From a virus (Duplodnaviria > Caudoviricetes), in IMG/VR virus record IMGVR_UViG_3300030117_007612, positions 1 to 64,000 of that record: a stretch of 64,000 nucleotides of DNA; one strand, written 5' to 3'. Below the pieces are notes generated by a model. The model did no database searches. It was not told the origin of the DNA and worked only from the letters and a program-made list of their open reading frames with translations. The position numbers and the translations under genes were made by a program. Shown here piece after piece: positions 8,430 to 34,129 of this stretch. Each line of letters opens with the position of its first letter. Positions within the stretch are counted from its first letter, which is position 1.

Positions 8430-8451
8430 GATATGACAACTATTTACATCT

Positions 8452-10426: not shown

Positions 10427-12811
10427 ATGCGCTCAGATGAACAAATTCTATATGAAACGAGGGATTTTCTTCAAAAAATTGAAGAAAATTTGACAAAAAA
10501 TCATAAAAAGCCTGAAAAAGTGCTCCGAGAAGTCACCGAAGACGAAATGCGAGTGCTTGAAGACGTGTTGGATGACTTAAATCCAGCAAATTTGCCTCTA
10601 AATGACCTTTTTAGCGGCAAAATGCGTGTTGTTATACCATTTCCGACCATAGATACTGGTTCAGAGCTTGGAAAGTTCTCAGAATTCTTCAGATCTCAAG
10701 AATATGACGTAGACTGGGAGAAAGGTATGGTGTATGCCGAGCGTGATCTGCGCACATCCGACGAATTTCTTGATACTTTGATGGGCGGACCTCAACCAAA
10801 GAAGAAAATTAAGAAGATTCAGATGAAAATCGGCAAACTTTTCTCTAAATTAGCTGATTTAAGCAGAAGAAAAGACGCATTGTACCAAAAAGTCTATGAT
10901 TACTTATCTGATAAATATATCGGGCCAGATGGCAAAAAAGTTAACACACCACGAAGAGTTACCGGAAAAATGCTGAAAGCAGCACTCGATGAGAAAGAAT
11001 ATGAGAATTTTCAGAGAATTAACACTCAAATTTACTTATATGTCGTAAATCCGGGTGTTGCAGGCCCAGCAGGCTATGATTTAACCGATTTAGCGACTGA
11101 ATACGGTGAATATTGGAAAAAGAACGCTGGATTCATCAAAAAAGAGATTAATAGAATTGATAATGACAAATATTCTATTATTATTACTCGACATCCGATA
11201 GATGTGCTCAGAATGAGTGATTTTGAGACTATTTTCTCTTGTCACTCTCCAGCTAGTCGCCAAAGTGCTTATCAATCGTTCTATAAGTGCGCTGTAGCCG
11301 AAGCTCAGGGACACGGAGCGGTAGCATACGTGGTAAAGACAGAAGACCTTCTGAGCACCACCAACACGGGGAATATTGATAGTGCAGAGCAAGAAATTCA
11401 AGAGGGCGAGATATTTTATGACGATAAGCGCCCATTTGCTGGGGATATTGACCCAATTTCTCGCACACGTATACGTCATGTTAGATATTACCGAGGAATA
11501 AGCCCTCCGAAGCGTTGGGATGACGGACAAGACGTTGGAATGCCTGAAATACGTGTTTACGGCATGGATATTCCCGGTTTAGCTAATAAAGTTGGAGATT
11601 GGGCCAGATCAAATCAAGAAGAAGTCATTGCCAACATGCCAAAAGAGGACGGTAAGCTTGATTTAAGTAGATTTATACAATTTGGTGGTTCTTACGAAGA
11701 TCATGGTGGAGGACCGAGTGTTCGAGCAATGCTTATGTCCAAATTTTTAAAAATTCCAACTTCAGATATGGTCGGCGCAATGAAACAAAATACAGAAACT
11801 GAAGATAACTTGGATGCTAATTTGGTTGGTGATATTATCGCACAATACGAAGGAGAGTGTGAACAAATAATGAATGAGTTCAACAACAAGATGGCTCAAA
11901 CATACTCTGATTATGAAGTTCAAGATGATGGCGGTGAGGGTGCTTATATTGCTCCTTTCGCAGCATTTATTGCAAAGTGGCCGGTTGATGAATGGAAAAG
12001 GCTTCCCGGCAACCAAGAAGAAGTTGTGTGGAACTCTGTTGACGAAATAATTGCCATATATGGTGATATATTTGTTGATTCTAACAACTATACTCCCATT
12101 ATTCGTCGAATTCGTGAAGAAATACACTTAACTATGAAGATTAACTTTGAACACCCTGACATTCATGGCAGTAGCTATCTTGTTATGCCAGAAGAATACC
12201 GAGAGGCACTTGAAAACATTAATGCCATAATTGATGATAGAAGAGATCAGTTTGAAGCTGTCCTCACAGAGTACTTCAAGCGTGAAGGTCAGATGGAAGG
12301 TGGTAAATATATGAATCTTGCCATGGCAATCGAAGATGGAGATTTCACTTCATATGAATGGGATCTCGAAACTGATGGGGATTACTCCGAATCATATGAA
12401 TCCACGGCGCGCTACTCATTCTATTATGATCCAGAGGAATTTGGTCTAGACATTCGTGTATTGGCTCAGATTCTTGATTCTCGCGACTTTAAGATTGAAT
12501 TGAGGAAACAGCTGCTTGAAGAGCCCAGAAAAGAGCAAAACACCGAATATTACCTGCAAATGAACGCTACAACGGTAGAGGTTGGTGGTGAGATTAAATA
12601 TACTTCTATATTCTCGATTAATGCTGACGAGCCTGATATTATGGCTGGATTGTTCCAAGAGCTTGTAGAGGGCGAGATGGACGATGAAGACAACCTTAAC
12701 GTGGTATTCAATAGAGTATTAGCTCAATTTGTAAAATCACGTCAGCCTGCATTTATGCAAACAAACGAAAACCTCGTAAAAACGTGGAAAGGATTTTTAG
12801 AAAAAAAATGA
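10427..12811 (+). CDS. large hypothetical protein, probably virion-associated
   Basis: 794 aa; TRHPIDVLRMSD...SCHS block; C-terminal ENLVKTWKGFLE. Confidence 0.65.
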   Translation: MRSDEQILYETRDFLQKIEENLTKNHKKPEKVLREVTEDEMRVLEDVLDDLNPANLPLNDLFSGKMRVVIPFPTIDTGSELGKFSEFFRSQEYDVDWEKGMVYAERDLRTSDEFLDTLMGGPQPKKKIKKIQMKIGKLFSKLADLSRRKDALYQKVYDYLSDKYIGPDGKKVNTPRRVTGKMLKAALDEKEYENFQRINTQIYLYVVNPGVAGPAGYDLTDLATEYGEYWKKNAGFIKKEINRIDNDKYSIIITRHPIDVLRMSDFETIFSCHSPASRQSAYQSFYKCAVAEAQGHGAVAYVVKTEDLLSTTNTGNIDSAEQEIQEGEIFYDDKRPFAGDIDPISRTRIRHVRYYRGISPPKRWDDGQDVGMPEIRVYGMDIPGLANKVGDWARSNQEEVIANMPKEDGKLDLSRFIQFGGSYEDHGGGPSVRAMLMSKFLKIPTSDMVGAMKQNTETEDNLDANLVGDIIAQYEGECEQIMNEFNNKMAQTYSDYEVQDDGGEGAYIAPFAAFIAKWPVDEWKRLPGNQEEVVWNSVDEIIAIYGDIFVDSNNYTPIIRRIREEIHLTMKINFEHPDIHGSSYLVMPEEYREALENINAIIDDRRDQFEAVLTEYFKREGQMEGGKYMNLAMAIEDGDFTSYEWDLETDGDYSESYESTARYSFYYDPEEFGLDIRVLAQILDSRDFKIELRKQLLEEPRKEQNTEYYLQMNATTVEVGGEIKYTSIFSINADEPDIMAGLFQELVEGEMDDEDNLNVVFNRVLAQFVKSRQPAFMQTNENLVKTWKGFLEKK

Positions 12812-13488: not shown

Positions 13489-13612
13489 TCTATTTATAAT
13501 ATGGTTTGCTTGTGCTAGTGTGATTGCATTTACAACCAGCAATAAGCAAAATAAAGCTAAAAAAGCTTGTGAAGTTGAAAATTGTGAAGAAACAGAGGAG
13601 AATGCGGAATGA
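13475..13612 (+). CDS. small membrane peptide (45 aa); not in ORF track
   Basis: MVAIDLFIIWFACASVIAF plus charged tail; ATGA overlap with next gene. Confidence 0.45.
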   Translation: MVAIDLFIIWFACASVIAFTTSNKQNKAKKACEVENCEETEENAE

Positions 13613-13854
13613 AATATTTATTATTATTTTTACTTTCTGGGGTCGTGCATGCCAATGAACCAAAAGAAGAACCCCGTGTGGTTTACAAACAAAAAACTGA
13701 GATTGACTTTGAGGGCGTTGAGGTTTCTGGCGAATTAGTCAGGCCGCAAGGTTCGCTTGTTTTAGAGCGAAAGCGCGCACAATTTAATTCAATGATTAAG
13801 TTGCGTACTGATTTCGATGATTTGATGGAAGATTCTGTCGAGGAAATAAAATGA
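13609..13854 (+). CDS. cglF: CglF/GltF-like adventurous gliding motility protein
   Basis: Signal peptide (VHA/NE), then YKQKTEIDFEG...GELVRPQG...RK...SMIKLRTDF.D...SVEEI, matching the myxobacterial CglF pattern as recalled. Confidence 0.7.
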   Translation: MKYLLLFLLSGVVHANEPKEEPRVVYKQKTEIDFEGVEVSGELVRPQGSLVLERKRAQFNSMIKLRTDFDDLMEDSVEEIK

Positions 13855-14003
13855 GCACACCAAGAGATTTAATAAAAAGCACATGGGCAAGGTATAAAGA
13901 ATATATGTTACTAAATGGTCGCTTAGAAGACTATGTGTTATTTACAATTGCAAAACTTCTATCTTTTAGTGCAGGAATAGGAATAGGATATTATTATTTA
14001 TGA
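13851..14003 (+). CDS. small membrane protein (50 aa); not in ORF track
   Basis: ATGA overlaps both neighbours; C-terminal hydrophobic helix. Confidence 0.5.
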   Translation: MSTPRDLIKSTWARYKEYMLLNGRLEDYVLFTIAKLLSFSAGIGIGYYYL

Positions 14004-14506
14004 AACTTATAATGGAAAATTGGAACAATTATTTGCAAGAAGAAGAAAGTTTGAATGAAGGAATTGGACAAAAATTTGCCATGGCTGCGGCATTGATTGC
14101 ATCGATGGTCGGTGGTTCACCCGACGCTAATGCCGCAATACAAGTTAGCCAAGATACAATTGAAGATGCCGGCAAAGTGCCGATCGCCAACGCGGCTGGT
14201 CTTCTAACAGACACTACAGCTAGAGTTATCTACGGTGGATTATTGGCCTTAGACCCGGTAGAATTTCCGGGAGCTAAACAGGCAGCAGATATATTTGCGA
14301 AAGCTCACAAATCTAAAGATATTCAACAATTTGAAAATATGCCGCCATTGGCACAAAAAGCTTTACAAATAATAGTAACTCAAATGCATACCGCTGCAGC
14401 GTCGGGTGATCCTGAAAAAGTTAAACAAACAATAGACACATATAGAGGCTTTGAGGCATCGGCGCCGAAAGGAATGAAATTAAAGAAAAAGTTTAGAGAC
14501 AAATGA
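14000..14506 (+). CDS. MKLxxENW-leader protein with internal Sec-like signal
   Basis: MKLIMENWNNYLQE...SLNE, then KFAMAAALIASMVGGSPDANA. Confidence 0.7.
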   Translation: MKLIMENWNNYLQEEESLNEGIGQKFAMAAALIASMVGGSPDANAAIQVSQDTIEDAGKVPIANAAGLLTDTTARVIYGGLLALDPVEFPGAKQAADIFAKAHKSKDIQQFENMPPLAQKALQIIVTQMHTAAASGDPEKVKQTIDTYRGFEASAPKGMKLKKKFRDK

Positions 14507-15522
14507 AATTATTATTTGAAAATTGGCGAAAATTTATAGATGAAGAGATTGAGATCCCTGCGCACCTTAAAAGAACTGTATATCGATTAGATGATGATCT
14601 TGACAAGGCTGAATATCAAGAAATAAAGGATGCTGTAAGTTATTTTATTGATTTAGCAAATGAATCCGCGCCATTAAAAAAGTACGAAGAGCTTACCGGT
14701 GCTCAACAAAAAATTGTGCAAGCTATGGGACTATGGACCGGAGGATATTACAGTGTATTAAGAAATCTGGATAGCCCTGAAGAAAGGATGTTTATGACTC
14801 AATCTCCCACGATTAGCAAAAGAAAAATGCAAAGAATGCAAGACGAAACACAACAGGTGCCTGTTCAATTTGGTAATTTCTCGGTTCAACAATCAGCGAA
14901 ATTTAAAATTACGCCGAGGTCACTAGATCAATCTTTTAAATTATTATACATTATTGCTCAATTAGAAATTCCAGAATCATTTCGAAAGCCATTATATAGA
15001 GGGCTAAGCCTTAATAAAAAACAATTTCGTAATTTCATTAACAGCAAAAAACCAATATTTCACGGTAACCTTCAATCGTGGACAACCGAGGGCAAAAGAG
15101 CCATTGATTATTCGAACCCTAAAGTAGCCGCCGAACACAATCGTGTTGCTGTGGTGCTTGAAATTGAAAGTCCAATCACCGGTACGCCAATAATGGGAGT
15201 TTCACATTTTAAAAGAGAAGCTGAAATTTTAAAAGCCGGTTCATTAAGTGTTTTAAGCTATAGTGAAGAAAAAAATAAAGATGGGCTTCCCTATTATCGT
15301 GTTAAAGTAAAGGAGGTTAATATACCTCCTGAAAAAACTATCTTAGATAAAATAAAAACAACAGCGAAGAATCTCTTTACCTCTAAAAGAAAATTTGGTG
15401 GGGGCGCAGGCGCTGAAGAGTATATTGCACCAAAATACGGAATGCAGATAAGTAACATTCTTAGTCCTAAATATTTAAAAGAGCTAAATACTGGAGATTG
15501 TACAAATGAAACTTATAATTGA
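14503..15522 (+). CDS. MKLxxENW-leader ADP-ribosyltransferase (R-S-E class)
   Basis: LYRG, LQSWT, REAEIL motifs in the C-terminal half. Confidence 0.75.
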   Translation: MKLLFENWRKFIDEEIEIPAHLKRTVYRLDDDLDKAEYQEIKDAVSYFIDLANESAPLKKYEELTGAQQKIVQAMGLWTGGYYSVLRNLDSPEERMFMTQSPTISKRKMQRMQDETQQVPVQFGNFSVQQSAKFKITPRSLDQSFKLLYIIAQLEIPESFRKPLYRGLSLNKKQFRNFINSKKPIFHGNLQSWTTEGKRAIDYSNPKVAAEHNRVAVVLEIESPITGTPIMGVSHFKREAEILKAGSLSVLSYSEEKNKDGLPYYRVKVKEVNIPPEKTILDKIKTTAKNLFTSKRKFGGGAGAEEYIAPKYGMQISNILSPKYLKELNTGDCTNETYN

Positions 15523-16639
15523 AAACTGGCGAACGTTCGCAAATAACCGATCGGGCGACGATCAAATTATTAACGAAGCCATGGAATTATGTAGAACGTA
15601 TAAAAAAGGTCTACTGATCCCTAAAAACAAAAATCAAAGAATGTTTTTAGAACAATTGCAGGAAATGTTAACTCTTCTTGAGCAAGGCGAAATTACGCGT
15701 CGTCAATTTGCTAAAGGTATGGCCGGCGGTGCTGCTATTGGTTTAGGAGGTTCCGCCATGGCAGGACTTGCCCGGGCAGGCGGAAAGGAAAAAACAAAAG
15801 CAGCCCCGGCCGCTAGCGGCGATATAGGGAGCACCGGAGCGAAAGTCGCCAAAGGCGCAGTTGGACTAGCCATTCAAGGAATCGTTGGAGCATTTGATCT
15901 TATTACAATGGGCGTTGAAAATTTTGTAACTCAATGTTACATTGATTTTTTGAGACGAAGAAAGGCCCCGCTTACTAAGTCAGACTTAGATCAAGATTTA
16001 ATCGACTGTCTTAAAATTATTGCGGAAGACTTTAAAAGATCTAGGAAATCCCGAAGAGACCAGTGGGGATCTGACAGGGATTACGCGAGGGTTGCTAAAT
16101 CTAAAATGTATATTGAAAGATTTGGTGAGGAAAGCCCGGGCACCTATAACATGCAAAAAAATATGGAAGGAGCTTGGTCGATTGCGGATAGCTTGACGTC
16201 TACCGATCCTTTAAATAACATTTTTAATACCCTCACTCACGTTAATATTACTCTAAAAGGAGAAACGGTCCAGTTTAGAGATATATACGATTTTAATCCA
16301 GCTGTTAACATACTGGGTGCCGACCAAGCAAAAAAAACCCGGGGCGCCCGTGAAAATAAAGCTTTTTTTCAAAATCCTGATAATTTCGTCGAATTTGCAA
16401 AAAGCGCTGTTAAGGGGAATTTGAGAGTTTATCGTGGTAGAAGACAAGGATGGATTGAGGTGGGTTTTTTCTCGCGCGCCGCAATTGAGAATTTGTCAAG
16501 ATTTTATATTGGCTTGTTTAATTATCCCGGATATAAAGTAAATATTGAAATACCAACTCTACAAGCTGAGCCATTCAGGGGTCGCGGCATGGTAGCGAAA
16601 GCGATGGACTGGTGGCAGGATGAAGGCGGAAAAATTTAA
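15506..16639 (+). CDS. MKLxxENW-leader protein with internal twin-arginine motif
   Basis: MKLIIENWRTF; TRRQFAK at aa 64-70, G/A-rich h-region, LARA. Confidence 0.7.
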   Translation: MKLIIENWRTFANNRSGDDQIINEAMELCRTYKKGLLIPKNKNQRMFLEQLQEMLTLLEQGEITRRQFAKGMAGGAAIGLGGSAMAGLARAGGKEKTKAAPAASGDIGSTGAKVAKGAVGLAIQGIVGAFDLITMGVENFVTQCYIDFLRRRKAPLTKSDLDQDLIDCLKIIAEDFKRSRKSRRDQWGSDRDYARVAKSKMYIERFGEESPGTYNMQKNMEGAWSIADSLTSTDPLNNIFNTLTHVNITLKGETVQFRDIYDFNPAVNILGADQAKKTRGARENKAFFQNPDNFVEFAKSAVKGNLRVYRGRRQGWIEVGFFSRAAIENLSRFYIGLFNYPGYKVNIEIPTLQAEPFRGRGMVAKAMDWWQDEGGKI

Positions 16640-16646
16640 ATATTTG

Positions 16647-16675
16647 TTGCACTTTATCTAATACAGTGTTATAAT
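16647..16675 (+). promoter_or_regulatory. sigma70-type promoter
   Basis: TTGCAC-N17-TATAAT. Confidence 0.7.
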
Positions 16676-16703
16676 GATTGTATAGCTATACAGGGAGGCT
16701 ATT

Positions 16704-17513
16704 ATGATCAAAAAATGCATGTTTTTTCTAGCTCTAGGTTTTGCAGCGCTAGCGGCTAGTTCACCATTTATTGTGCACGATTTGGCACAGTTGGGACATA
16801 AAAGCAGATGGTCGACTTTTGACAAAGTCAGAGTTAAATCTTATTTTGAACCTCTTGGACTTGCAGGGTCACTTGTTCCTCCGATTGGGCCGGCCAAGGG
16901 TATTCACCATGTTTCAAGCTTGGGTGACGCATACTTTGATGGTGACTTACCAAAAAAATCAACCATGAATTTTCTTCGAGAAGTGGTCATGACATCGCCG
17001 GGAAACGGAAAAGCCGGCAACGACTTCAAAAGTCGATTTATGCGCCACGAACAAATTGCCGTTTCATCTGGGAAAAAAGTACACATCAGCAATATTACAC
17101 AAGCGGTACCTTTTCATAGATATGGTCTTCCGTTTGTCGATCATTTTGCTATTACAATGAGAACTGACATCATCGATGGCAAACCAAAGAGTTCATTTAT
17201 AGTGTGGGGTCTGGGTGTGATTGCCGATCATCGCAACCCTAGCAATCTGGGGCCGCAATATGATCATGTTGCTAAAATTTTAAACCTTGAAGGCGGAGAT
17301 CTTATTAGGTGGACATGTAATCTTGAGCGCGAGGGTCTCGCTAAGCCTTATTGGGTTTTAATTACAGAAAACGATGAGACCTCCAAATTCAGTCACGAAG
17401 CAGTTCGAAAAAGGCCTAGTCAACGAAAAGGTGAATGGCACACCACGACTCGTTTGTTACACAAATCAGGCAAAGGCATGTCCGTAAGTCAGCTTTATAA
17501 TACGCTCTTTTAG
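16704..17513 (+). CDS. exported hypothetical protein (moron-like insertion)
   Basis: Own promoter, GGGAGG SD, N-terminal signal peptide. Confidence 0.7.
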   Translation: MIKKCMFFLALGFAALAASSPFIVHDLAQLGHKSRWSTFDKVRVKSYFEPLGLAGSLVPPIGPAKGIHHVSSLGDAYFDGDLPKKSTMNFLREVVMTSPGNGKAGNDFKSRFMRHEQIAVSSGKKVHISNITQAVPFHRYGLPFVDHFAITMRTDIIDGKPKSSFIVWGLGVIADHRNPSNLGPQYDHVAKILNLEGGDLIRWTCNLEREGLAKPYWVLITENDETSKFSHEAVRKRPSQRKGEWHTTTRLLHKSGKGMSVSQLYNTLF

Positions 17514-17535
17514 TATTTAAAAACTATATATTATC

Positions 17536-18306
17536 ATGAAACTCTTATTTGAAAATTGGCGAGAGTTCTTGGTAGAACGAGCCACATATATATCAAGTCT
17601 TCAACAAGCTTATCAAGTTTTAGGTCTTGAACCCGGATCTTCAGAATCTGAAGTTAAGAAAGCGTATCGTAAGTTAGCCATGGCCAATCATCCGGATCTC
17701 AATCCTTCACCAGAAGCAAGGGAGACCTTCGAAAAAGCATCAGAGGCTTATGAGGCAATTACATTTAAGGGCCCCGGTAGCTTTCCGTACAAGAGGGGTG
17801 GCGCTGGTGGCCCTGCCGGCGGAACAGATATAGCTAGCATGTGGAAAAACACAGGGCCCGAAGGAATATCAGTGCTAGCTAGTATCAGACAAATAATGAA
17901 CATTGTTTCTCAAGCAATTGAAACTAATCAATCTGTTAAAGTTGCAGGTATTAGTGTACCAGCTAAATTAATAATTGATCGTAATGACTATAGCAATCTT
18001 CTAAACTTTATGCGAAATTATCAATATGAATATTTAAGGGGTATGATGGGCGCTCAAGATTTTGTCAATAATAAAATACTAAATACCCTTAAAACTGTTT
18101 CAATAAGCCCAAAATTTGGATCAGGAAAGCAAGATTTACAAAATTTTGTGGACGTGATGAAAAGAATTGTCCCAGCAGAAGAAACAAAGAAAGAGCCAAC
18201 AGCTGCAGATACTCCCAAACCAAAAACGACAACTTCTCAAAAAACTAAAAGTGCTGATATACCGCCCGAAGACATTGAAATGATGAGAAATATGGGAATT
18301 CTTTAA
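17536..18306 (+). CDS. MKLxxENW-leader J-domain protein
   Basis: YQVLGL...[18 protein letters not shown]...FEKASEAYE. Confidence 0.85.
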
Positions 18307-18312
18307 TGTCTT

Positions 18313-18795
18313 ATGAAGCTATTACTTGAAAATTGGCGAAAGTATTTAGACGAAGTTGAGAGATTTCCAGATATCGCTACAGCGCAAGACGAGATCCAGC
18401 AAAGTCTAGACTATTTTTATCAAGATCACGCACCAAGTAAAGGTCAGCGAAGAGAGTTAGGCGAGTGGAAAGGGCACCAAATGGTAGCCTTTGATTTGCC
18501 GGGAGATACTATACTTTTCTTTGCAGTTGACAAACAAGACAGGGCAAGAGCCTATGTCGGCGTAGATCCCTTTCAGGATAGTTATTCTGTGGGCAATGTT
18601 CGTAAAACCAAGGGTGGTGGATTTTACACAACCGATCTGTACAAATGGTTAGTCGAACAGTTTGGAACATTATACAGTGATAATAAACAAACCACCGCCG
18701 GTGAAGGTATTTGGCGAAGACTGCAACAAGATCCAGAGGTAAATGTTGAAGAACCAAGCGAAGAAACTGGCGGGCGGTGGAGATTAACCAAATGA
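18313..18795 (+). CDS. MKLxxENW-leader GNAT-like protein
   Basis: VGNVRKTKGGGFYTTDLYKWL...LYSD..QT..G..IW. Confidence 0.5.
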   Translation: MKLLLENWRKYLDEVERFPDIATAQDEIQQSLDYFYQDHAPSKGQRRELGEWKGHQMVAFDLPGDTILFFAVDKQDRARAYVGVDPFQDSYSVGNVRKTKGGGFYTTDLYKWLVEQFGTLYSDNKQTTAGEGIWRRLQQDPEVNVEEPSEETGGRWRLTK

Positions 18796-19481
18796 AACTC
18801 CTATTTGAAAATTGGAGAAAGTTTATTACGGAGGTGGAAGAACCCATCACAACCCTTCGTATATTCGACTTCGATGAAACAATAGCCCATACGAGGTCAG
18901 AAACGCGCGTTACAGCGCCTAATGGCTCAAGTGCCACCCTACGTGACCAAAAAGAATTTGAAAGCTACATGCAGGCTGCAGCAAAGAAAGAGGGGATATC
19001 TACTTTTGACCCCGTTTCTGAACTACAAAGAGTTGGCTATCAAATAGATTTAAGTGATTTTGCAATTGTTAAAGATCCGGATGAAATCACTGTTGTTACA
19101 AGCATTATTAAAGATTTTCCGGCTGATTCTAAAACATATATTATGACAGCAAGACGAGGACAATCGCTTGGTCCAATTATGGAGTATCTTGATGAAATTG
19201 GTATTGATTCGTCAAACGTTAGACCAATTGCAACACAAGGGGAGTCTAAGGGCGATGTAATGGTAACGATGCTTAGACAAAAAATTATGCCCGATGGCAA
19301 ATCAAACATTAATCGAATTGAATACTATGAAGATTCTCAAAAAAATATTGATGATGTTTTACAAAAAGTTTGTTCAAATAAAGATATCGACCATCTTAAG
19401 CCTGACAATTTTGAATTAATAATTTATAAAGTCAAAAATGTTGCTGGTCAATATGTGCTGCAAAAGATTGAATGCGAATAA
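18792..19481 (+). CDS. MKLxxENW-leader HAD-family hydrolase
   Basis: Start ATG 18792; IFDFDETI motif I, IMTAR motif II, YYEDS motif IV. Confidence 0.75.
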   Translation: MKLLFENWRKFITEVEEPITTLRIFDFDETIAHTRSETRVTAPNGSSATLRDQKEFESYMQAAAKKEGISTFDPVSELQRVGYQIDLSDFAIVKDPDEITVVTSIIKDFPADSKTYIMTARRGQSLGPIMEYLDEIGIDSSNVRPIATQGESKGDVMVTMLRQKIMPDGKSNINRIEYYEDSQKNIDDVLQKVCSNKDIDHLKPDNFELIIYKVKNVAGQYVLQKIECE

Positions 19482-19498
19482 AGAAACTAATTATTGTT

Positions 19499-19945
19499 AT
19501 GCACTACATCTCCAAGTGGAAACAATTTTTAATGGTTGAAGACGACATGGATAGCCACGAGGTCGCAAAAGCTGTTATCATTACTTCGGATAACAAAGTA
19601 TTGATACTTAAAAGATCCGAATATATGGCTGAGTATGCAGAGGAGTGGGATTTGCCCGGAGGGCATCTAAAAGAATCAGAAAAGATGGAAATTGGTCTAG
19701 ACCGCGAAGTTGAAGAAGAGACTGGGTTAAAGATTGGACCCTTCGATCATGAAAAAATAATTACAATAGATAATTTACATTTTTATTTAATACGTTATAA
19801 TAAATCCAGCGATCAAATTAATATTGAAATTAGCGATGAGCACACTGATTTTGCCTTTATAAGTCAAGAAGAATTACAAAATTTCAACATTTCAGACAAA
19901 TTTATGGGAGTGATAAATAAATCAATGGGCTTTGATGATGAATGA
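19499..19945 (+). CDS. Nudix hydrolase with degenerate leader
   Basis: Start moved to ATG 19499 (MHYISKWKQFLMVE); LPGGHLKESE..EIGLDREVEEETGL Nudix box. Confidence 0.85.
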   Translation: MHYISKWKQFLMVEDDMDSHEVAKAVIITSDNKVLILKRSEYMAEYAEEWDLPGGHLKESEKMEIGLDREVEEETGLKIGPFDHEKIITIDNLHFYLIRYNKSSDQINIEISDEHTDFAFISQEELQNFNISDKFMGVINKSMGFDDE

Positions 19946-19991
19946 TGTCTGATATCACTATTTAATATTAGTTTATTGGAGGACATATACC

Positions 19992-20321
19992 ATGCCGAAC
20001 AATTCAAATAATGGATGGAATGAATATTCCAGACTCGTTCTTGAACAACTCGAAGCTTTAAGTATGGGAATTGATTCAATTAGGCTTGAACTTCAGGCTG
20101 TAAATCAAGAGTTAATAATCATAAAAGCCAAAGAAGATAAGGTAACTGAATTGAGAATATGGAAAGATAAGATTGACGAAGTGACTTCGCCGTCACAATT
20201 AAAGTCTTATCTCGATGACATTCAAGAACTAAAGGATTTTAAAACAAGGGCCATAACTATTTTCGCAGCTGCGCAAGCAGGGATGTTAGCCATACTCTCC
20301 TTGATGAAATACATGGGATAG
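19992..20321 (+). CDS. coiled-coil protein with C-terminal TM helix
   Basis: GGAGG SD; heptad-rich body; hydrophobic C-terminus. Confidence 0.6.
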   Translation: MPNNSNNGWNEYSRLVLEQLEALSMGIDSIRLELQAVNQELIIIKAKEDKVTELRIWKDKIDEVTSPSQLKSYLDDIQELKDFKTRAITIFAAAQAGMLAILSLMKYMG

Positions 20322-20325
20322 CTCT

Positions 20326-20619
20326 ATGTCATCAAGAAAAAAAAAGTACGACTCTAAAAGGTTGCAACAAATTATTAATCAAATATCCGGAGATATTGAT
20401 CCTGATGCCGAAGAAATATTCCCAACTTATATCGTCAAAGGCACTGGCTATATGTGGTGCTATTCTCCTACTGCAAAAACAATGGTGAGAATACTTCGCG
20501 GCAGCAAAGCATACTTATTGCATGATTCATTGGATGATGAGGCACAAGCCATGGTCTTCGTCCCGTACGAAATTGTTAAAATTGATTTGGAAGATTTAGA
20601 AGAAATAGGATATAACTAA
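20326..20619 (+). CDS. hypothetical protein
   Basis: 97-aa ORF in operon order. Confidence 0.55.
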   Translation: MSSRKKKYDSKRLQQIINQISGDIDPDAEEIFPTYIVKGTGYMWCYSPTAKTMVRILRGSKAYLLHDSLDDEAQAMVFVPYEIVKIDLEDLEEIGYN

Positions 20620-20747
20620 TGTTTTTTTCATTAAATGATTATTGGAAAGGAATTGCTCTTTTCTTATCGGCTTGGGTTTTTTATAACTTTACCGGTTTTG
20701 AGTTTACGGTTATAACGTTGTTAACGTTAATCTGGCTTAAAAAATAA
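20619..20747 (+). CDS. small membrane protein (42 aa); not in ORF track
   Basis: MFFSLNDYWKGIALFLSAWVFY...LIWLKK*; TAATG overlap. Confidence 0.55.
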   Translation: MFFSLNDYWKGIALFLSAWVFYNFTGFEFTVITLLTLIWLKK

Positions 20748-20750
20748 AAA

Positions 20751-20900
20751 ATGGCTAAAAAAAGAAAAAAGAGTAAAGAGAGAAACAATAAAGTCATTGT
20801 TGTGAACGTCACTAAAAACAAAACAAGAAAAATAAGAATCCTTGATTTTGACGAAAAAAAAAGTGAACCAAAACATGACAAAACAAATATTAATCAATAA
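20751..20900 (+). CDS. small basic protein (49 aa); not in ORF track
   Basis: MAKKRKKSKE...; fills gap in operon. Confidence 0.4.
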   Translation: MAKKRKKSKERNNKVIVVNVTKNKTRKIRILDFDEKKSEPKHDKTNINQ

Positions 20901-20938
20901 TCACGCCTAGTTATATAGCTTAATTAAGGTTTCTGGTT

Positions 20939-21205
20939 TTGATAAAGAAAGAATCATTTGGTAACGTCGCGGCGAAAGATATCGATCCCGGCGACTTGGT
21001 GCAGTGGTCTAAGTGGGATGATGATAAAAAGACTTACGATGAAAAATTTGGAATTGTCGTTTCTATTAACGAGCAAGTCCGCGGCAGTAGAATGGTTTCT
21101 GTTGCACGTGTTGTTCCACTTAATAACCCGAACGTTGAGCAAGATTTTTTTACTATGAGCCTTAAACTTGTATCAAAAGGTTCAAAAGGCACCAAAAAGA
21201 ACTAA
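20939..21205 (+). CDS. small SH3/KOW-like protein
   Basis: IDPGDLVQW...FGIVVS. Confidence 0.55.
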   Translation: MIKKESFGNVAAKDIDPGDLVQWSKWDDDKKTYDEKFGIVVSINEQVRGSRMVSVARVVPLNNPNVEQDFFTMSLKLVSKGSKGTKKN

Positions 21206-21230
21206 TTATATTTGAATTTGAGGACAATTC

Positions 21231-21725
21231 ATGACCACTGATAAACATAATGACCTAAAGGAATTGATAAAGGATTTTTTACCATATGCACAAAAACGAA
21301 TGGGCTTTACAAAGAAGCCACGCGTACTCTTTAGAAGAGATAAAGAAAATGCGCAAAATGTACTTGGAAAAACCGCACACTATGATCCTCAATCTTTTAC
21401 TGTTGTTCTATACGTTCATGGTCGTCATCCAAAAGATATAATGAGGTCACTATCTCATGAATTAGTGCATCATGCACAAAATTGCCGCGGAGAGTTTGAT
21501 AAGCCCTCTATAGCCGGCGAACAAGGCTACGCACAGAAAGATCCACACTTGCGAGAAATGGAACGAGAAGCATACGAAGTAGGAAATATGTGTTTTAGAG
21601 ACTGGGAAGATAATTATAAGGTATCAGTGACTAATTATAGTGTTACTCAAGTGTCTTTATCTGAGTGGCGAAATCTGGAATTGAACAAACTAGTTACAGA
21701 AAGATTAGTAAAAGGAGTAAAATAA
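21231..21725 (+). CDS. zinc metallopeptidase-like protein (HExxH+E)
   Basis: RSLSHELVHHAQ ... MEREAY. Confidence 0.7.
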   Translation: MTTDKHNDLKELIKDFLPYAQKRMGFTKKPRVLFRRDKENAQNVLGKTAHYDPQSFTVVLYVHGRHPKDIMRSLSHELVHHAQNCRGEFDKPSIAGEQGYAQKDPHLREMEREAYEVGNMCFRDWEDNYKVSVTNYSVTQVSLSEWRNLELNKLVTERLVKGVK

Positions 21726-22324
21726 TGAGTAACTTTGAGGATTGGAAAAATAAAGAGAGGGGTCAAATTTTAGCCAAAAAATTTGGATTAAAATTTGATT
21801 TAGACGCTCTTAGTGAAAACAAAAAGGAGTATGATTTAGATGAAAATGCAACAGATCGCGTTTTTGCACCTAATCATTATTGCGCGCATCATGTTAGATA
21901 TGAAGGGCGCGCCGGTCAAACTGTTGACCATAATTGGAATGAAGAACTCCAAGAAGTTACTCAATATGATATTAAATTTGAAGATGGGACTGTTGTCAGA
22001 GACGTGCCGGTTTCGGAGCTTGAAATCGTAGAGGCTAATTTGCCAGAGGGCCACGGAGGTGGTGGTCACCCACCCGCCAAGAGAGATTCCAAAAAGAAAA
22101 AGCCAATGGTTCAGGACAAGGATGATGTCGATGGCGATGGAGATACAGATGAAAAGGTTCCAGCATACGTCAAAAAAGGCGATGACAAAAAGAAGAAAAA
22201 GAAAAGTGGCAAGGTACCACCACAGTTTCAAAAACATGTAAAAGAAGAAACCGAATTAAAAGATTTAATCAGACAGCAAATTAAAATTGCTTTAGAGGAG
22301 ATAAAAAATGAACCCCAGACGTAG
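21725..22324 (+). CDS. hypothetical protein, probably virion-associated
   Basis: Start moved to ATG 21725 after AAGGAG; DxDxDG motif, poly-K, C-terminal EETELKDLIRQQI. Confidence 0.6.
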   Translation: MSNFEDWKNKERGQILAKKFGLKFDLDALSENKKEYDLDENATDRVFAPNHYCAHHVRYEGRAGQTVDHNWNEELQEVTQYDIKFEDGTVVRDVPVSELEIVEANLPEGHGGGGHPPAKRDSKKKKPMVQDKDDVDGDGDTDEKVPAYVKKGDDKKKKKKSGKVPPQFQKHVKEETELKDLIRQQIKIALEEIKNEPQT

Positions 22325-26532: not shown

Positions 26533-26865
26533 GGGGATGATATGGATTCGACAGGGCAAAAAAGAGGAAAAGTGCAAGCAGGTTAGATACGACCATAACA
26601 GTTCAACAAACTTAGTTGCAAATAACAACTTACATTTCGAACAGCGCTTAGCCGCTTAGTAGGGAGGCCGCTCAAAGCCTTCTATCCAATTTGAGCAAAA
26701 CAACAGATAAGTTGTAAAAATCAAACCATTTATCGTTCGCGTGATGGGGGCGATATCTTATTTCCATCTATCTTTGTCAGTATGTGATAGTAAACTGACT
26801 AAGCTTGTGAATGACTACAATTGGATTTGTTTTGGACGCGGGTTCGACTCCCGCCATCTCCACCA
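26533..26865 (+). ncRNA. ssrA: tmRNA; tag ANNNLHFEQRLAA*
   Basis: 5' GGGGATG...GGATTCGACAG; 3' GGTTCGACTCCCGCCATCTCCACCA; G3-U70 pair; resume GCA 26618 after TAGTT; stop TAG 26657-26659. Confidence 0.95.
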
Positions 26866-29350: not shown

Positions 29351-30106
29351 ATGTTTAAAAAAATGACATTTTTGATGACAGCCCTGTTCTTTTTAACAGG
29401 TGCTCAGACTCTTCAAAACCCTGTCGTTGATTTAAGCACAAACATCAAATCAGAATCAGCAGAAACTTTAAAAGTATCCGAGACCACACTTAAAACGAAT
29501 AAATCAAGAAACAAGGTCAGGAACGCTGCTGTTTCGGTAGTTACACAATATGGCTCTGGATCTGGAACATATTTTAAAATTGGTGAATATCACATTGTTA
29601 TTACCGCTTACCATGTTGTTGAGGGCGAGCAGGTTGTAATTGTGGTAGGTAGAAACAGCGAGCAGGTGATGGCCCAGCCAATAATTAAATCAATAAAAGG
29701 AGACATTGCAGTGCTATTGGTACCTAAATTAGCAAGCTGCCAACCCTTGAAATTGAAAAGCTTGCCAAATAGATTAAAAAACAATATCGACAAACTTGTA
29801 GGAACAGTTGTAACGTACACAGGTTTTCCGGCACATCACGAACTTCTGACAGTTGATGGCAAAATAGCGAATATTGAACATAATTTCATTATAATGCACT
29901 CATATGCATGGCCCGGATCATCAGGCTCAGGTGTGTTTGACTCAAAGGGCAGGTTTATAGGGGTTGTTAGTGCTGTTGACGTTGGTAGATGGCACCCATC
30001 AGTCCCGCCGGCGCTTGTCGAAGATATAGTTTGGGTTTCTCCGGGCTGGGATATATCACCAAAAGAAATAGAATTATATCTGCACAATCGAGGATTTAGA
30101 GAATGA
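29351..30106 (+). CDS. secreted trypsin-like serine protease
   Basis: Signal peptide; TAYHVV, GDIAVL, PGSSGSG triad. Confidence 0.85.
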   Translation: MFKKMTFLMTALFFLTGAQTLQNPVVDLSTNIKSESAETLKVSETTLKTNKSRNKVRNAAVSVVTQYGSGSGTYFKIGEYHIVITAYHVVEGEQVVIVVGRNSEQVMAQPIIKSIKGDIAVLLVPKLASCQPLKLKSLPNRLKNNIDKLVGTVVTYTGFPAHHELLTVDGKIANIEHNFIIMHSYAWPGSSGSGVFDSKGRFIGVVSAVDVGRWHPSVPPALVEDIVWVSPGWDISPKEIELYLHNRGFRE

Positions 30107-31158
30107 AAAAAGCACTTATAGCTTTATTGTCTATTATGATGAGCTATTCGTGCACCTATGATTATGCGATTGTAACCGGTAAAACTGAAACAATTGTTGA
30201 AACTGAAACAATCACCGAGACAATAACAGTAACAGAAGAGGTTGAAGTAGAGGTACCAATATATATTGAAGTCGAAGTACCAGTATATATTGACACCGGA
30301 TTTGATGATCCGGGTCTAGTGTGGGTTGATTCTTTTACTCAACCAAACACAGTTGACGGAATAGATATTTTATGGGTAATTGACACCTCTGGTTCAATGG
30401 GTAGATTTGATGCACAATTATTATTAGGTATCGAAGCTATGTTGGCTGCTCTACCGCCTACAAGTTGGAGGTTGGCAATGATGTCAAACGATCCTTCGCG
30501 CGCTGTATTAGAAAATCAGTTCCCTCTTGTACCGGGAGACGACATACTCGATGCTGAGGCAATGTATTCTTCTATGGGCCGCGGCCCCTTTGAGGAGGGT
30601 TTTGATGCTGTATATGAGTATATTATTAACAACTCATATTCTTCCACGTGGATGCGCCCAGACGCCGGATTGTTAGTCGTTTTTGTATCAGATGAGCAAG
30701 AACAAAGCGACGATCATTTCTCAGATTTAGCAGACTTTATATCATGGTACCGCAGCCTCCGCGGAGGTTCGGTATTTTTAGCTAGCATAGTTAATCACGA
30801 TTCTACTGAGACATTGTGCGATTATCCCCCAACTCCAATAGATGTGGGCACTCGTTATATGGACGCAACAAACTCTTTTGGAGGCAACATAATTGATATC
30901 TGTGCTGAAGATTGGTCGCCGGGAGTGGCCGATGCCGCAGCATCAGTTGAACCTCACGAAGCGTGGCTACTTACCCACAGTGCAATTCCCGATTCTGTCC
31001 GCGTGTTCATAAATGGAGAAGTACAGGACTCCAGCATGACAACATGGACCTACTCGGAATCCGACAATACAGTATATTTTCACACCATACCTGCTGGTAG
31101 TACTTTGGTGGAGATAGGATACCGATATTATGAAGCCGAACCTGACACCGGAGCGTAA
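30103..31158 (+). CDS. vWA-domain lipoprotein
   Basis: Lipobox-like SYSC; DILWVIDTSGSMG MIDAS; VVFVSDE. Confidence 0.75.
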   Translation: MKKALIALLSIMMSYSCTYDYAIVTGKTETIVETETITETITVTEEVEVEVPIYIEVEVPVYIDTGFDDPGLVWVDSFTQPNTVDGIDILWVIDTSGSMGRFDAQLLLGIEAMLAALPPTSWRLAMMSNDPSRAVLENQFPLVPGDDILDAEAMYSSMGRGPFEEGFDAVYEYIINNSYSSTWMRPDAGLLVVFVSDEQEQSDDHFSDLADFISWYRSLRGGSVFLASIVNHDSTETLCDYPPTPIDVGTRYMDATNSFGGNIIDICAEDWSPGVADAAASVEPHEAWLLTHSAIPDSVRVFINGEVQDSSMTTWTYSESDNTVYFHTIPAGSTLVEIGYRYYEAEPDTGA

Positions 31159-31360: not shown

Positions 31361-31437
31361 GCACCCGTAGCTCAGCTGGATAGAGCATCGGCCTTCTAAG
31401 CCGAGGGTCATAGGTTCGAATCCTATCGGGTGTGCCA
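31361..31437 (+). tRNA. trnR: tRNA-Arg(UCU)
   Basis: GCACCCG/CGGGTGT acceptor, TCGGC-CTTCTAA-GCCGA, TTCGAAT, encoded CCA. Confidence 0.95.
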
Positions 31438-31459
31438 TAACAATCAATAGGAAAAAATT

Positions 31460-31894
31460 ATGAAAACCAAAACACCTTATGATACCGTTGTTGTTAGCGG
31501 CGGGTTTGATCCTGTTCATGTTGGACATGTTAGGATGATTACTGAAGCTGCTGAGCATGGAGATGTAATTGTAGTAGCCAATTCTGATGAGTGGCTTTTA
31601 AACAAGAAAGGATACGTATTTATGAAATGGGAGGAAAGGGCTGAGATCTTGTCCTCGTTTAAGGGGGTCATCCGCGTTGAGAGAGTGGATGATAGTGATG
31701 GCACAGTATGCGAAGCTTTAGAAAGAATCGAGCCGACATACTTTGCCAACGGCGGCGACAGAAAAGAGACAAACACACCAGAAATGAAGGTATGCAACGA
31801 TAAGGGTATTGAATTGTTGTGGAATATTGGCGGCGGCAAAATACAAAGCAGTTCCGACTTAGTTAAAAATTATGAAGAAAAAAGATTACAATAA
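31460..31894 (+). CDS. cytidylyltransferase-like protein (HxGH; TagD/RfaE-II-like)
   Basis: SGGFDPVHVGHV, NSDEWL..KKG, NGGDR, SSSDL. Confidence 0.8.
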   Translation: MKTKTPYDTVVVSGGFDPVHVGHVRMITEAAEHGDVIVVANSDEWLLNKKGYVFMKWEERAEILSSFKGVIRVERVDDSDGTVCEALERIEPTYFANGGDRKETNTPEMKVCNDKGIELLWNIGGGKIQSSSDLVKNYEEKRLQ

Positions 31895-31900
31895 AATTAA

Positions 31901-31977
31901 TGGGGCGAAGCGCCACAGGCAGGTGCACCGGGTTGTTACCCCGGCCGTTGCTGGTTCGAGTCCAGCCGCCCCAGCCA
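31901..31977 (+). tRNA. trnN: tRNA-Asn(GUU) with atypical core
   Basis: TGGGGCG/CGCCCCA acceptor, CCGGG-TTGTTAC-CCCGG, GCTGG-TTCGAGT-CCAGC, G73, CCA; A8 and C14. Confidence 0.8.
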
Positions 31978-31981
31978 TTAC

Positions 31982-32056
31982 GCGGGAGTAGCTCAGTGGT
32001 AGAGCCCCACGTTGCCAACGTGGATGTCGCGGGTTCGAATCCCGTCTCCCGCTCCA
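31982..32056 (+). tRNA. trnG: tRNA-Gly(GCC)
   Basis: GCGGGAG/CTCCCGC, CCACG-TTGCCAA-CGTGG, U73, CCA. Confidence 0.95.
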
Positions 32057-32791: not shown

Positions 32792-34129
32792 ATGAGAAAG
32801 AAAAATTACGTAATTGACACCAGTGTTTATTTAACAGATTCTGAGTCAATAAAAAGTTTTGGAAACAATGACATCATCATCCCCCTGAAGGTCTTGGAAG
32901 AGATTGATTGTCACAAGAAAAGGCAAGATAATGTTGGCGCGAATGCGCGTCGAATTATAAGGTTTTTGGATAATTTGTGTCAAAAGGGAGACCTTAGCAA
33001 GGGTGTAAGAATTGAAAAAGGAAAGGGAATCGTATCTGTAAAATCCCTAAACGATGTAGAGTTAAAGTTAAATTCTCTGACACCCAACCTTAACCAAGAT
33101 GTACCAGACCATATTATTGTCGCGACGGCACTTACTGTAAAAAGTGAACAGCCAAATCGAAAAACTGTTATGGTGACAAATGATATTAATATGAGAGTTA
33201 TATGCAACTCTTTAGGATTAGAGTGTGAAGAATATAACCCCGCACAAGTTGTTGAAAACATAGAAAGATTATACACAGGATTTTCGTCCATCTTAGTTGA
33301 CGAACAGACAGTTGATCAACTTTATTCGGGTGAAGAATTAATTTTAGATCAGGAATTAAAGAATGTGTGCCCAAATGAATATTTAATGCTGATTTCAAAC
33401 ACAAATGAAAAAAAGACAGCTCTTGCTCGATATTTGGGGCCTGAAACAGCCTTGAGAAGAATTTCAAAGTTCAAAAAAGGAATATGGGGAGTTACGTCTA
33501 GAAACAAAGAGCAATTATTTGCCCTAGATTTGCTTATGGACCCCACTGTGCCAATAGTCACTCTGGTGGGTAAGGCTGGCTCCGGCAAGACGCTCTGCGC
33601 CATAGCAGCCGGCCTTGAGCAGGTAATGAGTAGTGCCGGCGATTCTAAAGCATATAAAAGAATGATTGTGTCCCGACCGGTCCAACCTTTAGGAAAGGAC
33701 ATAGGATTTCTTCCGGGCACTCTCGAAGACAAGATGACCCCATGGTTGACTCCAATTCAAGACAATTTGAAATTTTTAATGGGCGACGATCGTGCAACAT
33801 TAGATATGTATATGCAAAAAGGCATGATAGAAATTGAAGCACTAACATATATTCGAGGAAGATCTATATCAAACGCATTTATTATTATAGATGAGGCTCA
33901 GAATCTATCTAGTCACGAATTAAAAACAATTATTACGCGCGTCGGAGAAGGAACAAAAATTGTCTTAACCGGCGACATCGAACAGATTGATAGTCCATTC
34001 GTTGATGAAACTACGAATGGCTTGACATATGCAATTGAAAAATTTAAAAATCATACGTTAGCTGGTCACGTAACCTTACATAAGGGAGAGCGCTCCAAGG
34101 TTGCATCACTGGCGGCGAGAATACTATAA
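32792..34129 (+). CDS. phoH: PhoH family protein with N-terminal PIN domain
   Basis: VIDTSV PIN start; GKAGSGKT, YIRGRS, IIDEAQN, TGDIEQID. Confidence 0.92.
   Translation: MRKKNYVIDTSVYLTDSESIKSFGNNDIIIPLKVLEEIDCHKKRQDNVGANARRIIRFLDNLCQKGDLSKGVRIEKGKGIVSVKSLNDVELKLNSLTPNLNQDVPDHIIVATALTVKSEQPNRKTVMVTNDINMRVICNSLGLECEEYNPAQVVENIERLYTGFSSILVDEQTVDQLYSGEELILDQELKNVCPNEYLMLISNTNEKKTALARYLGPETALRRISKFKKGIWGVTSRNKEQLFALDLLMDPTVPIVTLVGKAGSGKTLCAIAAGLEQVMSSAGDSKAYKRMIVSRPVQPLGKDIGFLPGTLEDKMTPWLTPIQDNLKFLMGDDRATLDMYMQKGMIEIEALTYIRGRSISNAFIIIDEAQNLSSHELKTIITRVGEGTKIVLTGDIEQIDSPFVDETTNGLTYAIEKFKNHTLAGHVTLHKGERSKVASLAARIL

Follow-up and report, generated by a model that had tools for sequence, protein, structure and literature searches.

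A 14-residue N-terminal leader on unrelated proteins of uncultured T4-like phages: a possible capsid targeting sequence

The stretch examined here, which we call the window, covers positions 1–64,000 of a 203,368-bp virus record from IMG/VR (IMGVR_UViG_3300030117_007612) that CheckV scores as complete, and nearly all of its genes lie on the + strand. Six near-adjacent open reading frames (ORFs) on this strand open, each at an ATG, with the peptide MKL[LI]xENW (the ENW leader, or leader, in what follows; Table 1, where genes are named by their first position), and ATGA overlaps couple translation at 13851/14000, 14000/14503 and 18313/18792. A degenerate DNA pattern for MKLxxENW matches the 203,368-bp genome six times on the forward strand and never on the reverse strand, always at an ORF start, and the reversed control pattern has no match in the same genome. 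When a hidden Markov model (HMM) trained on 127 leaders from other contigs only was run on the whole genome, it returned exactly the same six genes at 22–31 bits, with the next match at 8 bits, and a broadened model left this outcome unchanged. The pattern counts, the reversed control and the HMM together rule out a chance or low-complexity match as the origin of the leader. The initial annotation, made from the sequence alone, had described six near-adjacent genes with a common leader and proposed a genome-wide HMM search, and on both counts it is borne out by the ORFs, the pattern count and the HMM scores, nothing else rising above 8 bits. It had also counted a degenerate seventh leader on the Nudix gene 19499, which at 4.6 bits is noise; since Nudix proteins of related phages bear a genuine leader, it is possible that this N-terminus decayed from a former one. 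Five of the six window leaders end in (L/I)xE, and the 15506 protein has I-N-E at residues 22–24 instead.

Table 1. Features of the leader locus, its flanks and the head-module leader genes (window positions unless the genome is named; aa, amino acids)
Feature	Position	Strand	Remarks
Conserved upstream flank, 794 aa, unknown function	10427..12811	+	Homologues in 23 loci
CTATTTA motif	13490..13496	+	Directly 3' of a thioesterase gene and upstream of the coupled genes 13609-16639 at the start of the leader cluster
Two small ORFs: 81 aa, exported-looking, and 50 aa, hydrophobic	13609..14003	+	Second ORF ATGA-coupled to the first leader gene
Leader gene 1, 168 aa, unknown function	14000..14506	+	Leader MKLIMENWNNYLQE, acidic linker, Ala/Gly-rich hydrophobic stretch; HMM 26.9 bits
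Leader gene 2, 339 aa, predicted R-S-E ADP-ribosyltransferase	14503..15522	+	Invariant residues, fold matches
Leader gene 3, 377 aa, unknown function	15506..16639	+	Gly/Ala-rich hydrophobic stretch after the leader; HMM 21.9 bits
Interposed leaderless gene, 269 aa	16704..17513	+	Signal-peptide-like N-terminus
Leader gene 4, 256 aa, J-domain, then C-terminal part of unknown function	17536..18306	+	PF00226
Leader gene 5, 160 aa, predicted GNAT fold	18313..18795	+	AlphaFold model, Foldseek
Leader gene 6, 229 aa, HAD-like	18792..19481	+	DFDET motif; most widespread cargo family
Nudix hydrolase	19499..19945	+	PF00293; N-terminus MHYISKWKQFLMVE resembles the leader loosely only
Second CTATTTA motif	19958..19964	+	34 nt ahead of the conserved downstream gene 19992
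Conserved downstream flank: genes 19992, 20326, 20939 and HExxH metallopeptidase-like 21231	19992..21725	+	Homologues in 10-21 loci
Second-leader genes of the head module	genome 107341-109685 and 118268-118735		In locus L010 at 3341, 4210, 4751, 5010, 5410 and 14268

A scan of IMG/VR with a 24-nt degenerate pattern that fixes residues 1–8 only gave at least 165 matches on at least 118 contigs, and the family statistics below refer to the matches listed. The leader heads at least 135 distinct full-length proteins that fall into at least 87 blastp clusters, 63 of them singletons, and its consensus is MKL[LI][LMF]ENW[RNK]x[YF][LIV]xE. Residues 9–14, free in the search pattern, still read [RNK]-x-[YF]-[LIV]-x-E over 149 distinct proteins; 89% of them have L, I or V at position 12 and 78% have E at position 14, and from residue 15 onward the information content stays below 1 bit, so that the conserved unit is residues 1–14. 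In 105 of the 149 proteins, residue 14 is the Glu of an [LI]xE tripeptide (113 if [LIVMF]xE is allowed); in a few relatives two to four additional residues precede the leader, as in MSDMKLIMENW. MQKLFENW, MKKLLESW and MKxxMKDW are further variants of its start. A word-limited protein search with leader residues 1–40 returned only orthologues of the 160-aa protein and is not a census of the leader.

The codons are diverse where the residues are fixed. Within the window, Lys is spelled AAA or AAG, Leu3 CTT, TTA, CTC or CTA, and Asn AAT or AAC; across the family all six Leu codons are found at position 3 and five Arg codons at position 9, and no base is conserved in a family alignment of the 30 nt upstream of the leader genes. 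Because the codons vary, the residues do not and the upstream nucleotides are unconserved, we conclude, as the initial annotation had suggested from synonymous variation, that the leader is selected as a peptide. The same observations rule out an RNA or DNA element in its place.

The leader family is real and found in viruses only. Prokaryote genomes gave 122 matches to the pattern, most of them an internal motif of glucose-6-phosphate-dehydrogenase-like proteins or short chance ORFs, and only five are canonical leaders, which sit, one or two to a contig, on three small contigs of metagenome-assembled genomes (MAGs): L177 (Woesearchaeota), L209 (Opitutia) and L217. As homologues of the genes that flank the leader cluster in the window are found on L177 and L217, these two are probably phage contigs mis-binned into prokaryote MAGs. 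The initial annotation had held that a motif equally common in non-viral proteins would speak against its proposal; this was looked for and is not so. A tblastn search of 50,697 phage records with the HAD cargo and a 21-aa leader query found neither leader nor HAD cargo in a cultured phage, and a DNA search with the locus for cultured relatives returned nothing. One apparent leader on a portal protein (the single Phage_portal match, MKFIVENW in L078) proved to be a chance match, internal to a longer frame and with the rest of the leader missing.

We find that the leader locus is a hypervariable cassette site between conserved flanks, since the flanking genes (10427, 12811, 19992, 20326, 20939 and 21231) recur in 10–23 of the 118 related loci and for four of the six window cargos these loci hold no homologue. 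In complete relatives there are one to eight leader genes each, mostly clustered, and leader genes occur in other neighbourhoods as well. At the variable positions 4–5, leaders agree more within a contig than between contigs (0.49 vs 0.29; 1 of 5000 shuffles), and in one complete relative five adjacent leader genes have an identical 24-nt start; this within-contig likeness and these identical starts indicate that the tag is also spread or homogenised by recombination. The 794-aa flank protein is 20–25% identical over about 720 aa to proteins of 809–822 aa from three related loci (L036, L044 and L049), and these homologues carry an N-terminal ENW leader. An ESM Atlas look-up of the 794-aa protein was uninformative, and its own C-terminus (12770–12811) ends in ...NENLVKTWKGFLEKK, a leader-like W-x-x-F-L-E string that is unconserved in the aligned homologues.

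Further features of the window are noted here for completeness. In the region 21231–22324, the HExxH metallopeptidase-like gene of the downstream flank (164 aa) matches DUF6647 with E 8.6e-5 and Peptidase_M91/M76 weakly, and overlaps a 219-aa ORF in a different frame where relatives have a single gene of 280–400 aa. Either a frameshift, a split gene or an assembly error could account for this. At 29351–31158 the gene for a trypsin-like serine peptidase (PF13365, E 7e-14) precedes one for a vWA-like protein, and the phage also encodes a tmRNA (tag ANNNLHFEQRLAA) and three tRNAs (Arg-TCT, Asn-GTT and Gly-GCC), at 26533–26865 and 31361–32056.

The proteins behind the leader were described by the initial annotation as unrelated domains, a view that stands for the ADP-ribosyltransferase (ART), J-domain, GNAT-fold and Nudix proteins and is supported indirectly only for the HAD protein, with 14000 and 15506 still unknowns. 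The 14503 product has only six homologues among 5.8 billion proteins, and residues R166, S192-W-T194 and E239-A-E241 are invariant in all six. Its AlphaFold model is of low confidence overall (mean predicted local distance difference test, pLDDT, 47), with a core at residues 160–272 of 70–88, and in an exhaustive structural search the top 11 rows, over residues 153–277, were all ARTs: HopU1 was best (Z 8.6, root-mean-square deviation 3.0, 92 residues aligned), and the Tre1-type toxin 6drh (Z 8.3), SidE (7.7) and Vis (7.4) were among the others. The protein has no Pfam match, and a sequence search with the ART profile found no relative in the PDB. On the strength of the invariant residues and the modelled fold we accept it as a predicted ART of the R-S-E class.

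The remaining window cargos are of other kinds. The 17536 protein has a DnaJ domain (PF00226, E 5.9e-16) at residues 25–75, with the HPD motif in ...MANHPDLNP.... The 18313 protein has no Pfam match; in its AlphaFold model (pLDDT 85.9 overall) leader residues 1–17 fall below 50, are partly helical and do not pack against the domain, and the top 50 Foldseek matches in the PDB all have a GNAT fold (E 3.6e-4 to 1.8e-2, template modelling score about 0.4–0.5), so that a GNAT fold is supported by the model. In the 18792 protein, motif I of the HAD family (DxDxT) reads D-F-D-E-T; it belongs to a blastp cluster of 12 members and has homologues in 15 loci. Because this protein itself has no Pfam match at E<0.1, its HAD assignment is supported indirectly, by matches of HAD_SAK_1 to six of the 135 scanned leader proteins (best E 1.8e-5), which presumably belong to the same 12-member cluster. 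The Nudix protein 19499 matches PF00293 with E 2.8e-13. Across the family, leader proteins match HAD, Nudix, GNAT, M23 peptidase, DnaJ, an RNase T-like exonuclease, a zeta-toxin-like kinase, 5'-3' deoxyribonucleotidase and polynucleotide kinase.

The genome that carries the locus is of the T4 type. It encodes a T4-type portal (PF07230, E 9.5e-79) and large terminase, a tail sheath, a Gp23 capsid protein (E 2.9e-62) with a very acidic, scaffold-like protein of 362 aa, at genome positions 127162–128250, directly upstream, and, at genome positions 119071–119721, a gp21-family prohead protease (Peptidase_S77, E 5.2e-34; Pfam 5.7e-33) with ELDHP and SSRG motifs, after which comes a protein of 138 aa. 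The propeptide of the major capsid protein (MCP) can be aligned with the gp23 propeptide of T4, in which the L-T-E cut falls opposite L-R-E. By portal, the nearest isolates are Microcystis phage Mel-JY01 and Flavobacterium phage immuto, at 38–39% identity. The other leader-bearing records that are at least 90% complete number eight among the matches listed, and all are of 180–203 kb. The initial annotation had proposed co-occurrence with a gp21-like protease as a check; Peptidase_S77 is present in this genome and in all eight of these relatives. The shorter leader contigs listed are all estimated to be 12–68% fragments of genomes of about 180 kb, and as this holds for all contigs below 130 kb, the leader was not seen in small genomes of podovirus size.

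The head module of this genome contains a leader of its own. Close to the terminase, portal and protease genes lie five or six others whose small acidic products start with MK[IL]T[KE]xxLxxI[IV]xEE, and their orthologues (MKITKTQLKQIIKEEL and similar) are common in related contigs, often with the sequence CTATTTA ahead of them; the proteases of the lineage begin M[GS]K[KV]LLRE[YF]YELCEGG. Both leaders, ENW and head-module, may act as core-binding signals. A gene for a tubulin/FtsZ-family GTPase (PF00091, E 9.4e-8, at the cut-off) sits in the head module between portal and prohead protease, at genome 117204–118253 (L010 13204–14253).

CTATTTA, found on either side of the leader locus, occurs 19 times on the coding strand of the genome and six times on the other, and within the window at 8440, 13490, 19958 and 25104. 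In this phage and its relatives it stands 11–40 nt ahead of structural and leader genes; among the genes that it closely precedes in this genome are the scaffold/MCP pair, the tail-sheath gene and several of the head module. In the related loci, 23 of 123 leader ORFs and 160 of 2190 other ORFs have it in the 60 nt ahead of them, where chance would give about 1%, and the non-leader ORFs so preceded include portal, scaffold, sheath and head-module orthologues in related contigs. Sites crowd in the structural module and near the leader genes, and a single one falls in the replication region, where a helicase lies at 159 kb and ribonucleotide reductase at 162 kb. Because of this association with structural genes we regard CTATTTA as a candidate promoter element of late type, unlike that of T4: the T4 late promoter TATAAATA is not enriched in the genome (three coding-strand sites against 12 on the other strand). 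Scans for sigma-70 promoters and terminators between 12.5 and 21.5 kb gave no excess over shuffled sequence. Two large proteins with CTATTTA upstream also have leader-like starts and no Pfam family, one of 1177 aa in this genome (181639–185172; L253 140–3673; MDISTASWFNYLHEE) and one of 1134 aa in a related contig (L095 9857–13258; MKKFMKDWRSYLNED). The window also encodes a PIN-PhoH fusion protein, at 32792–34129.

A short N-terminal peptide on otherwise unrelated phage proteins has a well-studied precedent. In T4, the internal proteins and other components of the core carry N-terminal propeptides of 10–19 residues that attach to the scaffolding core and that gp21 cuts off behind (L/I)xE (PMC9026906, PMC3012670, PMC8442874, PMC5694885), and residues 1–10 of IPIII (MKTYQEFIAE) are enough to load foreign proteins into the head (PMC9026906, PMC3012670, PMC8442874, PMC5694885). 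A Glu-to-Asp change is reported to block cleavage of the T4 signal. T-even internal-protein loci encode diverse proteins whose sole common part is the conserved capsid targeting sequence, or CTS (PMC3012670), and the ADP-ribosyltransferase Alt of T4 is packaged and processed by gp21 (PMC9026906). The ENW leader resembles the CTS in being a short N-terminal peptide with an MK start and an (L/I)-x-E end on otherwise unrelated proteins, encoded in hypervariable loci, in a phage with a gp21-family protease, a scaffold and a propeptide-bearing capsid protein of the gp23 type. There is also a qualitative likeness to the starts of gp21-processed T4 proteins (gp24 MAKINELLRE, gp22 MLKEQLIAE, Alt MELITELFDE) and to that of gp21 itself (MNEPQLLIETW).

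The differences are nevertheless considerable. The ENW leader has 14 residues against the 10 of T4 and an invariant E-N-W core that is missing there; its function is a prediction from sequence, whereas that of the T4 CTS was established by experiment. The internal proteins of T4 are small and basic, in contrast to ENW cargos, which are mostly acidic enzymes of 66–894 aa in at least 87 clusters. Alt is processed by gp21 at both ends and is injected with the DNA. The 14503 protein, a predicted ADP-ribosyltransferase of a T4-type phage, resembles Alt in its short (L/I)xE peptide at the N-terminus, but it has 339 aa where Alt has 682, its fold matches are bacterial effector ARTs (HopU1, Tre1-type, SidE), and it shares the common leader, whereas the N-terminus of Alt differs from the CTS of the internal proteins. 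A second comparison is offered by the giant phages phiKZ, 201phi2-1 and SPN3US, in which propeptides of ejection and inner-body proteins are cut at (S/A/G)-x-E by a gp21-related protease (PMC5694885). Among the proteins packaged in those heads, many are cut behind Glu by a homologous protease, and paralogues can share an identical N-terminal 15-mer, but the propeptides are mostly longer than 100 residues, their cut motif has a small residue in position P3, and dozens of unrelated families with one short leader in common are not seen there. In the literature searched we found no paper linking a CTS to marine or cyanophage genomes.

The reading that we favor, and for and against which we hold the evidence to be evenly balanced, is that the 14-residue ENW leader is a lineage-specific CTS of the T4 type. 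We infer each step of such a pathway, that is, binding to the core, cleavage, packaging and injection. As a short, flexible helix at the N-terminus, the leader would bind the scaffolding core during prohead assembly, so that whatever protein follows it would be enclosed in the head. The gp21-type prohead protease would cut after the Glu of the terminal (L/I/V)xE and free the mature enzyme within the head, from which it would leave with the DNA at the next infection. On this account the locus at 13.6–19.9 kb may match the T-even loci for internal proteins, which are hypervariable as well, and the ADP-ribosyltransferase that bears the leader may match Alt. We favor a CTS because the leader is short and N-terminal and ends in a cut motif exactly where conservation stops, because it is unpacked in a confident model and, among the complete records listed, found only in T4-type genomes with the protease, because the cargo is hypervariable and unrelated and includes an Alt-like enzyme, and because the leader genes share the promoter-like CTATTTA with structural genes. 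A broader claim, which we advance only tentatively, is that the leader serves an uncultured marine T4-like clade with genomes of 180–203 kb as a portable address that loads an open-ended set of mostly acidic enzymes (at least 87 families) for co-injection; that this set comprises ADP-ribosyltransferase, Nudix, HAD/nucleotidase, polynucleotide kinase, GNAT, J-domain, M23 peptidase and zeta-toxin-like kinase proteins is put forward with the same reserve.

A capsid address had been proposed by the initial annotation, and every in-silico prediction tested came out in its favor, namely the protease, the (L/I/V)xE end, restriction to viruses, hypervariable cargo, an unpacked leader and a shared upstream motif; the fit to T4 is less good in that the cargos are mostly acidic enzymes, similarity to MKTYQEFIAE is not significant and a second leader heads head-module proteins. 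Several observations weigh against a capsid address. Regarding the leader itself, its likeness to MKTYQEFIAE comes down to the pattern MK...E...[FY][IL]xE, the 15506 protein lacks LxE at residues 12–14, and the resemblance of the ENW leader to the head-module leaders and to the protease N-terminus is qualitative, with no HMM signal. The head-module leader may be an equally good or better candidate for binding the core, and co-occurrence with the protease is a property of the lineage, with no specific linkage. As to the proteins, homologues of the 794-aa flank protein exist both with and without a leader, the cargo includes ordinary-looking cytoplasmic enzymes (5'-3' deoxyribonucleotidase, polynucleotide kinase, exonuclease), and it is mostly acidic (median mature isoelectric point 4.9; 101 of 133 below 6 and 16 above 8.5) over its range of 66–894 aa. 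CTATTTA is termed late by association only and also stands ahead of PIN-PhoH orthologues in two related contigs (L110 and L120). Finally, no cultured phage in the 50,697-record collection has the leader or the HAD cargo.

These points give some room to a different role, which we consider unlikely, in which the leader is a docking helix for a common partner outside the capsid (a hub protein of phage or host, a chaperone, a membrane or an intracellular structure built by the phage) and the enzymes act, unpackaged, in the cell that produces them. The mostly acidic cargo, which resembles cytoplasmic metabolic and RNA-repair enzymes, would fit such a role, as would the free N-terminal helix of the model; the greater likeness of leaders within a contig (0.49 vs 0.29) is what co-adaptation to any genome-encoded receptor would produce, and a tubulin-like gene lies in the head module. 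A docking helix leaves unexplained, however, why conservation ends in (L/I/V)xE and why an upstream motif is common to leader and structural genes, and no candidate for the partner was found.

It is very improbable, in our judgement, that the leader has no sorting role and is instead recognised by a processing or modifying enzyme whose gene lies close by, in the manner of ribosomally synthesised and post-translationally modified peptides. The HExxH gene 21231 would be one candidate for such an enzyme, lying 1.3 kb downstream of the cluster and recurring in 21 of the 118 leader loci, but this linkage is loose: the gene is found in only 18% of the loci and leader genes also have other neighbourhoods. 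The radical-SAM gene of the window is 30 kb away in a glycan cluster, and the cargos are large folded enzymes rather than peptide precursors. Still harder to credit is a degron or timing tag that would limit the tagged accessory enzymes to a brief, programmed life ended by a protease of host or phage. An exposed leader, unstructured in the model, and a trypsin-like peptidase encoded at 29351–30106 would suit it, and the activity of accessory enzymes might require a time limit, but no known degron is similar and a degron would account neither for the confinement to a single T4-like lineage nor for the LxE end or the promoter-like motif shared with structural genes. Least probable of all is that the conserved 5' end of the genes persists chiefly as a patch of homology for cassette-shuffling recombination and that its peptide has little function, for although the five identical 24-nt starts of one complete relative, the likeness of leaders within contigs and a locus hypervariable between conserved flanks all speak for exchange, 42 nt is short for homologous exchange, highly diverse codons for fixed residues point to selection on peptide rather than DNA, and recombination may explain how the tag spreads but not why it is retained.

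Returning to the ENW leader as a CTS, the principle is known from T4, and the differences lie in its sequence, in a cargo that is acidic and rich in enzymes, and in its scale across an uncultured marine clade. Programmable protein delivery with the T4 CTS dates from the 1990s (PMC9026906, PMC8442874), so the programmable delivery signal envisaged by the initial annotation is not a new idea, and as packaging by leader fusion is already established for T4, the gain would be biological rather than technical. If the ENW leader is a CTS, a search with 14 residues would be enough to pick out the proteins that enter the host from abundant ocean phages before gene expression, and the injected effectors could be read straight from metagenomes. 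These proteins would likely be enzymes of host takeover and counter-defence, mostly of families without known function, and the injected set would be far larger than, and chemically unlike, the basic internal proteins of T4. The capsid-targeting principle of T4 would then be general, fast-evolving in sequence and able to carry large acidic enzymes.

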